Of a stretch of 47,066 nucleotides of DNA, positions 30,001 through 33,000 are shown one piece after another (position 1 is the stretch's first letter; each line of letters begins with the position of its first letter). A program made the position numbers. The stretch lies in sequence record OZ365185.1; one strand, 5' to 3'. Origin of the DNA: a phage.

Positions 30001-33000
30001 CCGGCGCAGATATAAAAAAGGCCCGCAAAAGCGAGCCAGAAAAAATAAGTATGGCGCGTTGTACTGGATTCGAACCAGTGACCGATTGCTTAGAAGGCAA
30101 TTGCTCTGTCCGGCTGAGCTAACAACGCTGAATACCGATAATGGACCGCCATCGAGGACTCGAACCCCGCGCAGCCAGCTTCGAAGGCTGGCGCTCTATC
30201 CCGATGAGCTAATGGCGGTATGTGATATGGTGGCCCTTGCTGGATTTGAACCAGCGACCTGGCGATTATGAGTCGCTCGCTCTCACCACTGAGCTAAAGG
30301 GCCGGGCGCAGGATAATAACGGTACGTAACTAATCCTGCAATATCATCCGTTCTGACTGACTAAATCCTGAACTTCCCTGACCGTCTGCTCAAAACGTTC
30401 AGTCTCCAGCTCAACGCCAGTTACACGACGCCCCAGCGCCATCGCTGCTTTGACTGTCGAACCTGACCCCATGAAGAAATCTGCAACCAGGTCACCCGGA
30501 CGACTGCTCGCACTGATTATCTGCTGCAGCATTTCTGCCGGTTTTTCGCACGGATGTTTCCCGGGATAGTACTGCACCGGTTTATGCGTCCACACATCCG
30601 TGTACGGCACCTGCGCCGTCACGCCAAAATACCGCCGCAGATGCTTATATTCACTCTGCAGTTCCGCATACTGCCGGTTCAGTGAAGTATACGTCTCCAG
30701 CAGCTGGTGGTGGGGCTTTTCCAGTTCACCGCGCTGATGCTTCTCTTCTGCCACCCGGGCAAACAGCGCCTGTAATTTCAGATAATCGCTTTCGTTCGGT
30801 AGCTGCCACTGACTGGCACTGAACCAGTGCGACACCATGTTTTTCTTTCCTGTGGCATCCACTATCTGTTTTGCCGTTATCCCCAGGGCAGCGCGCGCAT
30901 CACGAAAGTAAGCAATCAGCGGAGCCATCACATGCTGTTTCAGTGCCCTGCCCTTCGCCTCATACCTGGCATCTTTCGGACGATACGGCCCCTGATAATG
31001 TTCCGCGAACAGAATGCGCTCTGTGGCGGGGAAATACGCCCTCAGGCTTTCCTTGTTGCACCCGTTCCAGCGTCCGGACGGCTTCGCCCAGATAATATGG
31101 TTCAGCACACTGAAGCGTTCACGCATCATGATTTCAATGTCAGATGCCAGGCGATGGCCACAGAACAGGTAAAGACTTCCGGCAGGTTTCAGCACCCGCC
31201 AGAACTGCGCCAGACACTGGTCCAGCCACTTCAGGTAATCATCGTCGCCCTTCCACTGGTTATCCCAGCCCTCAGGCTTCACTTTAAAGTACGGCGGGTC
31301 CGTGACTATCAGGTCAACAGAATTTTCGGGTAACGACCGGATAAATTCCAGGCAGTCAGCGTTGATCAACTCACAACTGGATATTTTTACAGTATTAAAC
31401 ATGGATCATTAAGCCTGTCTCTGATAGGCTCATTCTGCTTTTGCGCAAAGCAGTGGGCCTGAGGTTTGCTTGTGATCCAGACGCATGAGCAGATGGCTGG
31501 TGAGTGCCCCTAACACCCACCAGCCGCCCATTTACCACAAATAAAAAAGCCTTCAGGACTGAAGGCGTCTGTAACAACCGAACTGATAGTCTGCCAGACC
31601 CGCCATAACCAGCTGGGTCAGTATTAACTGGCAGCGTTCGCGTGAAAGGTAAGTATTCTGTGCAATCTCCCCGACAGTCGCCGGTTCGGTGACGCTTAAT
31701 TCATTAAACACCACTCTGGCGGTTTCTGTCATATCCTGCTGTTTCAGCATGTCTTTTTCCCTTTTCCGGTTAACGTGACACACCAATAACTCTTGTCAAA
31801 AAAGCCAGCAAGCTGAAAGACCGGTATTCACAACCACCAGCGCGTTTACTGTACAGGACCGATTTCAGCCATAAAAAAACCCGCTCGCGGCGGGTTTAAG
31901 CTGTGTGGCGAAGTAACCACTCTTAACATACTGACATACTTTTTGCGGACCGCGCTAATCATTTTTTACTTTTTTAGCAGCCAGTCGTCCATCTCCAGTC
32001 TTACCCCCAGCACAGACAAACATCCGTCAATAAACCCTTCGGCTATCTGCATCTCAATTCGTATTGCTTTTTCGCTTTTCTTTCTCGTCCTGGCTATCTG
32101 TCTTTTTGATATTCGCAACAAATAATGAGCAATGAGAAGCGAATACTCCTCAGGTTTTTTCTGCTTCAGACGAGCAAGACAGTTTTCAATGATAAGTCCG
32201 TCATCATCGCAGCAGGCCGGACGTGGTTTAGTGGCAGATGGTAAAAGTCCTTTGAATCCGGCAGCGATCGGAGAATAGTCCACCCCGGTGTTACCACTTG
32301 CCGCCCATGCCCCCCAGCGTTCAAGAACCATCTGAATATCACGCATCAACTTTCTCCACAAAATCAGGACAGCACACCAATCGCCAGCGCGCGATCGATA
32401 AAACGAAATATCAGCTCCAGCTGGGAGCCATACTTTTCTTCAAATGCCACGGTATCCGCATGCAGCTCGTCGTGATGCTTTCTGCACAAAGGCAACACAA
32501 AAAGGTCATGCGCTTTTGTTCCCATTCCACCCTGACCGTAACCTATCAGGTGGTGGGGATCATCAGCGGGCTTTCCACAACATGCACACGGCTGTGTCTT
32601 AACCCAGCGCGTGTACTTTTCATTAACCCAGCGGCGACGTTTTGGGCGTAACATAAAAGACTCCGGCGACTCCGGATCCACTTTCAGCGCCAGCACCTTT
32701 TTCGCCTTATCCCGGATGATGCTGGTGGCAGGAACCGAAGGCACAAGGTCACTTTCCCGGGTGACAGACGGCACAACAGGCTTCGGTAATCTCAGTGCCT
32801 TACGGGCTGCACTTTCCGGTAAGGCATCCGCCAGGTCATTACGAATCAGCCACCAGCACAGTTCCGGCATTGTCACAACGTGACTGTCATCAAAACCGAG
32901 ATCCCGACGCACAACAGACAACACCCAGCGGGCACAGTTATCCGTTGCCATTGATTCCAGCCGTTCCGTGAACTGGTCACGCAACTGGTTATCGCAGTGC

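Follow-up and report, generated by a model that had tools for sequence, protein, structure and literature searches.

Gene Q and the Sequence That Follows It

The stretch of phage DNA considered here (OZ365185.1; 47,066 nucleotides (nt), hereafter the window) carries on its minus strand the gene of the late-gene antiterminator Q and, directly after it, a short region in which a promoter, pR', and an intrinsic terminator, tR', in all likelihood form a cis-acting late-gene control cassette served by an antiterminator of the Q21/Q933W family. The cassette is unannotated in the GenBank and RefSeq records. The window, a Shiga toxin 2 (Stx2) phage, is all but identical to Escherichia phage 1720a-02 (KF030445), with a 100% match over positions 31300..32400; the late strand is the minus strand, and a methylase, tRNAs, stx2AB, and the lysis and structural genes all lie downstream of tR' on that strand. 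Gene Q (32346..31966, minus; ATG at 32346, TAA at 31968..31966) encodes a protein of 126 amino acids that matches Pfam PF06530 (Phage_antitermQ) over its full length (E 1.4e-52), is 49% identical to Q933, the 144-amino-acid Q of phage 933W, and is related to the Q21 structures PDB 6P18/6JNX (E 7.5e-8); the same gene is already annotated as Q in KF030445. Q21 and Q933W have been placed in one family, and it has been described how Q21 binds two direct 8-base-pair (bp) subsites in pR'21, loads on a sigma-dependent paused complex and then, as a nozzle on the RNA exit channel, blocks terminator hairpins (Yin et al. 2019).

Past the Q TAA the minus strand reads ...AAACCCGC cgcga GCGGGTTTTTTTAT, and the hairpin AAACCCGC-cgcga-GCGGGTTT (31897..31877) runs into a T7 tract (31879..31873). 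Together they make up tR' (31897..31873, minus; +25..+49 from the start discussed below), a strong terminator of the canonical intrinsic type with an 8-bp stem, a 5-nt loop and T7. By itself the hairpin has a folding energy of -11.7 kcal/mol (z = -2.7 against shuffles), and in a scan of 30500..33500, which returned 8 terminator-like sites where shuffles gave 2.8 +/- 1.8, tR' ranked first. Measured from the Q stop, tR' reaches from 69 nt (start of the hairpin) to 93 nt (end of the T tract), in agreement with the first-pass annotation, which had placed a strong intrinsic terminator about 70-90 nt past that stop. Among the relatives the stem is kept and almost invariant; the loop, of either 5 or 6 nt, is not constant in sequence, and T tracts from T4 up to T8 are found, the window version (8 bp, T7) being among the strongest. 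In four leader variants (L017, L050, L076 and L096) an unrelated GC-rich hairpin stands instead at about +35..+60, followed by a T-run in three of them; these non-homologous hairpins are best read as replacements that keep the terminator function.

The Predicted Start of Transcription and Leader RNA

In the prophages Sp5/Sp15 the start of pR' and the 3' end at tR' have been mapped, 258 nt apart (Sy, Lan and Tree 2020, PMC7547250). In that work the small RNA StxS, which goes with the 144-amino-acid Q933, is the 3' 74 nt of the 258-nt RNA, released by an RNase E cut between GU and AUU of GUAUU at +173, and the 258-nt RNA accumulates in the absence of Q (Sy et al. 2020, PMC7547250). Since the Sakai coordinates of that study differ from NC_002695.2, the 933W start was derived from the length of 258 nt and from the cut at +173, which agree on the A of GAGTGG at position 1201 +/-1 of the 933W locus in our comparison (L002). 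The 933W record (NC_000924) annotates pR', a 'qut' at +8..+15 and two 'possible rho-independent terminators', the first at +26..+48 (20726..20748) and the second ending at +257. When 933W L002 1150-1470 was compared with the window by blastn, the only real match was between 933W -8..+49 and 31929..31873, at 83% identity. The matched 933W segment takes in the start site, the early part of the leader and the first of the two annotated terminators, and it is this terminator (L002 1224-1249, +24..+49), not that of StxS, to which the window hairpin is homologous.

By this homology the pR' start would lie at 31921 (minus, +/-2 nt), at the A of GAGTGG. Because this is 45 nt past the Q stop, the Q-independent terminated leader RNA is predicted to measure about 49 nt, from 31921 to the end of the T tract (31921..31873, minus). 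The terminated RNA of 70-90 nt expected by the first-pass annotation has accordingly to be shortened, and its span 31872..31965 is sound for promoter, leader and terminator taken together, not for the transcript alone. Its central proposal, a pR'/tR' arrangement directly after Q, is supported by the PF06530 Q, by the 83% homology to 933W -8..+49 and by a layout that matches that of phage 21.

The leader, taken as 51 nt, folds at -18.0 kcal/mol (z = -3.3), with a stem-loop at its 5' end that a 7-nt linker separates from the terminator. This stem-loop, GUGGU-uacuuc-GCCAC (31905..31920, minus; +2..+17), is present in the minimum-energy and centroid folds of both the window and 933W, and its pairs are invariant or G-U in relatives. 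In an alignment on the leader, made with GenBank phages and 120 IMG/VR hits, conservation sets in abruptly at about -8. At the gathering score no Rfam family was found at the locus; the sub-threshold matches (Trp leader, 20.2 bits against 41; isrK, 18.3 bits against 50; anti-hemB) were rejected, as in each of them the generic terminator hairpin alone aligns.

Relation to StxS

The first-pass annotation also took the locus for an StxS-like small RNA gene, and this part of it has to be given up. In blastn comparisons of 933W L002 1150-1470 and of an 85-nt 3' fragment with the window, the StxS segment gave nothing beyond chance 11-13-mers, and the RNase E motif GUAUU is absent from +1..+49. Downstream of the hairpin, homology to 933W does not return until the 3' end of the methylase (933W L002 1470, window 30454), and the approximately 210 nt that hold StxS in 933W are replaced here by an open reading frame (ORF) of 65 amino acids, a terminator and a full-length methylase; the next terminator stands about 370 nt past tR', after this coding ORF. 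Furthermore, StxS is associated with the 144-amino-acid Q933, while the Q encoded here has 126 amino acids. Further marks of StxS are Hfq binding and base pairing with the rpoS and stx1B mRNAs. StxS was found in 18 of the approximately 129 sequences compared; 16 of these 18 have the TTTACG..CGTAAA promoter dyad of the Q933/DLP12 type, one (L009) has that of the mEp460 type, and one is too short to score.

The leaders that carry StxS keep an intact hairpin (7-8 bp, T7) at +24..+49, 5' of StxS. Because a well-formed terminator is kept at +49 in these phages, the 258-nt StxS precursor must be a read-through product made without Q, and comparison of the leaders suggests that termination at the first hairpin is incomplete in 933W. 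933W/Sp5 may likewise produce an RNA of about 49 nt.

It could be asked whether the leader of about 49 nt, besides its role in cis, is a stable, Hfq-binding and trans-acting small RNA in lysogens, comparable to StxS in function but not in sequence or targets. We consider this unlikely. It is shaped like a small RNA: a 5' stem-loop is joined through 7 single-stranded nt to a terminator hairpin that ends in U7; promoters of the pR' type are constitutive in lambda and presumed to be so in Stx phages; StxS itself is a precedent for a small RNA made from a pR' by-product; and between ten Q clusters, which share only about 50% identity, +1..+24 of the leader has changed remarkably little. In addition, RNase E cross-links were recorded at the 5' region of the 933W leader (Sy et al. 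2020, PMC7547250). However, the conservation of the leader is accounted for equally well by what pausing and Q loading demand of the DNA and the RNA, and the leader has no homology to StxS or to any Rfam family; nor was a species of about 50 nt reported from the homologous 933W segment (Sy et al. 2020, PMC7547250). The broader proposal that this leader is made constitutively in hundreds of E. coli prophages, from K-12 DLP12 to 933W, where it would be the 5' end of the StxS precursor, and that it is a stable, trans-acting small RNA overlooked for its size, is likewise doubtful. The multicopy small RNA HnrS (66 nt), which binds Hfq and has an intrinsic terminator, is described as lying among the late genes of the Sakai prophages Sp9, Sp10 and Sp12 (PMC13502914); it might be the leader of another type of pR' cassette.

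The Proposed Promoter pR'

The reading of the leader as the product of a late promoter leads to the sequence around 31921, where four features of the minus strand can be aligned with the other members of the family. An A-rich tract, which may act like an UP element, covers 31962..31975 (-41..-54) and overlaps the Q stop codon; such a tract is found just 5' of the -35 region in most of 44 promoter variants. The putative -35, a weak TTAGCG at 31953..31958 (-37..-32), aligns with TTTACG of 933W pR' and with CTAACG/TTAACG of other alleles. At 31928..31936 (-15..-7) a predicted extended -10, TGtCAGTAT, aligns with TATCAT of 933W pR'. In every other promoter variant a TAnnnT hexamer (for example TATCAT, TATGCT, TATCGT, TACTGT or TAATCT) occupies -12..-7, 5 nt before GAGTGG; the class of the window has CAGTAT in that place, with TG at -15/-14, that is, an extended -10. 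Lastly, TACTTC at 31910..31915 (+7..+12), a -10-like hexamer, is a candidate sigma-dependent pause element by analogy with phage 21; its counterparts are TACATT in 933W and TACTTT in some relatives.

A longer terminated RNA, of about 85-95 nt, would result if the promoter overlapped the end of Q instead. Indeed, a hexamer pair with 4/6 and 4/6 matches and a 17-nt spacer (TGGACG-17-TAAAAA) can be read at 31991..31963, and the 95-nt stretch is able to fold. We give this arrangement a low probability: the pair is likewise not called by a promoter scan, shuffled sequences fold as well as the 95-nt stretch (z = -0.22), the homology to the mapped 933W start puts +1 at 31921, and in relatives in which Q stands 0.6-2.5 kilobases (kb) away the cassette keeps its own -35 and -10 beside the leader, with unrelated sequence upstream of about -40.

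A Candidate Q-Binding Element

The promoter at 31921 contains a dyad, GCGGTCCGC (31945..31953, minus; centred at -28), which is the best candidate for the Q-binding element of this subfamily. The comparison on which this is based took the best perfect inverted repeat within -50..-16 of 44 distinct promoters (loci L002, L004-L009 and L011-L130, with the dyad at -34..-21). Arms of at least 4 bp were present in 93% of the 44 promoters, against 28% of shuffles when the repeat may lie anywhere in 35 nt, and the centre is at -27.5/-28 in almost all. The dyad changes with the Q cluster: TTTACG(AT/TA)CGTAAA (TTTACGATCGTAAA) goes with the Q933/DLP12-type Q, GCGGTCCGC with the Q of the window and the SfIV-type Q, GCGTACGC with the mEp460-type Q, and GTTATAAC, GGAATTCC and TTCGTTACGAA with other Q clusters. 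Inside each cluster it is essentially invariant and its flanks vary. Moreover, the dyad tracks the predicted helix-turn-helix segment of Q and the neighbouring spacer does not; one spacer (aattcttgtaatct) is found with two different dyad/Q pairs, in what amounts to a natural swap. The Q933W-like subfamily may recognise a dyad-symmetric site at -28, not direct repeats of the Q21 type. A literature search for a Q933 binding element, or for such a dyad, returned nothing relevant, although the older literature is poorly covered by it.

A direct 8-bp repeat, AGTATGTC/AGTATGTT, can also be read in the promoter (31925..31940, minus; -19..-4) and resembles the Q21 binding element with its two direct 8-bp subsites. 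As a Q site in the style of Q21 it was set aside as probably not functional in this way: in the sister Q cluster, which shares both the helix-turn-helix type and the dyad, the spacers are unrelated, and the pairing of spacer aattcttgtaatct with two dyad/Q combinations disfavours it as well.

Distribution and Mobility of the Cassette

Leader and hairpin occur together in 368 phage records and in 850 of 5,426 complete E. coli genomes, and with such conservation the hairpin is not a chance structure; in 214 of these genomes 80% or more of the query is matched, which represents this Q allele with its leader. Strain 2014C-3097 has an identical cassette. A PF06530 Q lies upstream on the same strand in 101 of 128 leader loci, at 10 bp to 2.5 kb from +1. 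Across loci the promoter is always attached to the leader, and the sequence 5' of about -40 is unrelated between them. In more than 60 loci the hairpin is 0.6-2.5 kb from Q, often behind genes of the opposite strand (nmpC/ompD) and directly upstream of holin genes. Judged by these surroundings, the cassette is a mobile unit. The K-12 prophage DLP12 is among those with this arrangement; its leader, at NC_000913 577,228 (577,228-577,245), stands 170 nt before essD and is unannotated, and a literature search brought up no relevant report of a mapped transcript 5' of K-12 essD.

The same distribution bears on the view that the hairpin mainly terminates the early operon (pR to Q), ending the Q mRNA, and is not a target of Q. 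It is the first terminator past Q on the same strand and would also halt unmodified polymerase arriving from upstream, and the two roles are mutually compatible. As the cassette is often far from Q and behind opposite-strand genes, however, the hairpin is unlikely to be merely a terminator of the Q mRNA; in the 60-plus loci just mentioned it always has its own promoter, and the records of phage 21 and 933W annotate the equivalent element within the late cassette, so that this view is very improbable. As to a small protein, an ATG ORF of 38 amino acids (31846..31962, minus) is present and hypothetical ORFs are annotated over the leader in some related records, but it was rejected, and we give it next to no credence: it has no Pfam match, its ATG lies 5' of the inferred start, it runs straight through the terminator, and the loop length of 5 or 6 nt among relatives breaks its frame, which is not conserved.

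The Proposed Mode of Action

In the late-control cassette that we favour, host sigma-70 polymerase would start at about 31921 from pR', with its weak -35 and extended -10 (TGtCAGTAT). In a lysogen, where Q is absent, the polymerase would halt at the hairpin and T7 tract (+25..+49) and release the leader of about 49 nt. After induction, Q would bind the promoter DNA, most likely at the dyad centred at -28, and load onto a polymerase paused, in a sigma-dependent manner, close to the promoter. In the way described for Q21, it would then form a nozzle on the RNA exit channel by which terminator hairpins are blocked, and the modified polymerase would read through tR' and two later terminators into the 65-amino-acid ORF, the methylase, the tRNAs, stx2AB, and the lysis and structural genes.

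Several points weigh against this interpretation or loosen parts of it. The start at 31921 is placed by homology to 933W, and the 3' end of the leader is a prediction. The -35 is poor and is separated from the -10 by a spacer of 19 nt, CAGTAT is the weakest -10 of the family, and a simple consensus sigma-70 scan of 30500..33500 called no promoter, for which reason the strength of pR' is uncertain. The candidate pause element TACTTC does not have the conserved final T. The association of dyad and Q allele could be due in part to physical linkage and not to recognition. Compensatory base changes were sought in both leader hairpins among the relatives and none were found, the stems being nearly invariant; since there is no such covariation, the structural support rests on folding energy, on the variation of the loops and on the replacement hairpins. 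Finally, by comparison with the homologous 933W hairpin, past which the 258-nt RNA is made without Q, termination at tR' may be incomplete here as well, and a leaky tR' could allow low-level expression of the 65-amino-acid ORF in lysogens.

In this phage the cassette is the gate through which the production of Stx2 is linked to prophage induction, and its correct placement matters both for annotation and for the prediction of toxin output from Q/pR' alleles. It also follows from the comparison that StxS, a specific insertion of the Q933-type leader, is not transferable by position to every terminator that stands behind Q in Stx phages. Two aspects would be of specialist interest if confirmed, namely the strong +49 terminator kept 5' of StxS and the promoter dyad that changes with the Q allele.

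Control Downstream of tR'

The first gene after tR' is the 65-amino-acid ORF (31750..31553, minus), with a winged-helix, TrmB-like sequence. Its TrmB match is weak (E 0.0024, below the Pfam cut-off); the frame is intact in 33 related loci, two divergent allelic forms exist, and the phiP27 counterpart is annotated as a TrmB-family regulator. From this conservation the ORF is taken to be a real gene. It is bracketed by two terminators, tR' and a second intrinsic terminator at 31541..31566 (minus), with the stem GCCTTCAG-tcct-CTGAAGGC followed by T6, whose 5' arm overlaps the end of the ORF (-10.5 kcal/mol, z = -3.5). The full-length DNA methylase (31402..30344, minus) comes next, followed by three tRNAs (30303..30052, minus) preceded by a tRNA promoter, pT (TTGCAG-17-TATTAT, 30313..30341, minus), identical to the annotated 933W pT. 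A third intrinsic terminator (30012..30037, minus) lies between the tRNAs and stx2A and corresponds to the one annotated upstream of stx in 933W.

Because two more terminators lie between tR' and stx2A, Q-modified polymerase must pass three terminators to reach the toxin genes. A primary start site was observed at pT in phage Sp5 (Sy et al. 2020, PMC7547250), and since the 933W pT is unchanged here the tRNAs are not strictly dependent on Q. The statement that everything downstream depends on Q read-through at this point is right in that the late genes lie downstream on the same strand, and overstated in view of pT and of the two further terminators.

Other Features of the Window

The toxin genes stx2A (29960..29001, minus) and stx2B (28988..28725, minus) are intact in the window; in KF030445, stx2A is interrupted by an aminoglycoside phosphotransferase. 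Adjoining the 3' side of stx2B there is a match to the small RNA STnc100 of Rfam (142.7 bits; 28425..28637, minus), with terminator-like hairpins on its flanks, and directly past the lysis genes a chloramphenicol acetyltransferase gene is found at 23979..24638 (plus strand), by which the phage is recognisable as one marked in the laboratory. Upstream of Q lies a DUF968/HNH gene (33359..32364, minus), which KF030445 labels a second 'antitermination protein Q', probably a misannotation. Farther upstream, tandem matches to isrK (59 bits) and C4 antisense RNA (82 bits) occupy 37634..37882 (minus), directly 5' of a Rha/antirepressor-like coding region. This tandem looks like an antirepressor control module of the P1 immI type, and automatic ORF listing fuses the isrK/C4/antirepressor-like stretch into a spurious ORF of 387 amino acids.

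Comparison With Known Systems

A true homologue is the pR' region of 933W/H-19B/Sp5, the proximal segment of which (-8..+49) matches that of the window and includes the 5' stem-loop and the terminator stem. The two differ 5' of -8, where 933W has the dyad TTTACGATCGTAAA and the -10 TATCAT, and the window has GCGGTCCGC and CAGTAT. They differ also past the hairpin, which is followed in 933W by the 210-nt stretch with StxS and its second terminator and in the window by the 65-amino-acid ORF, a terminator and the intact methylase. With StxS itself the predicted leader has in common its origin, from early-terminated transcription of a constitutive pR' in Stx-phage lysogens, and a 3' end at an intrinsic terminator. 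However, StxS is a 74-nt piece of a 258-nt RNA released by RNase E, whereas the RNA predicted here, of about 49 nt, is the counterpart of the 5' portion of that precursor.

The proposed plan of the cassette is that of phage 21 (OL657228), in which the -35 is followed, in the same order, by the Q-binding element, the -10, the start and the pause element, and the terminator is complete by about +50; the Q belongs to the same superfamily, the leader is likewise very short, and late genes and tRNAs come after it. Since the curated phage 21 record has this plan, a leader of about 50 nt is normal for this Q family. In contrast, there is no DNA similarity between the two in promoter or leader. Q21 binds two direct 8-bp repeats at -27..-12, and the element proposed here is an allele-specific dyad centred at -28. 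The Q of the window and its relatives are also without the loop inserted in the helix-turn[loop]-helix of Q21, through which Q21 makes minor-groove and protomer contacts.

The underlying logic is known from lambda, in which the 6S RNA, of 194 nt, extends from pR' to tR': a constitutive late promoter is followed by an early terminator, and a short by-product is made when Q is absent. The lambda Q belongs to a different family (PF03589), and the lambda leader is unrelated and much longer than the one described here. Set beside these systems, the cassette of the window is an ordinary, so far unannotated member of a textbook system, and not a copy of StxS.

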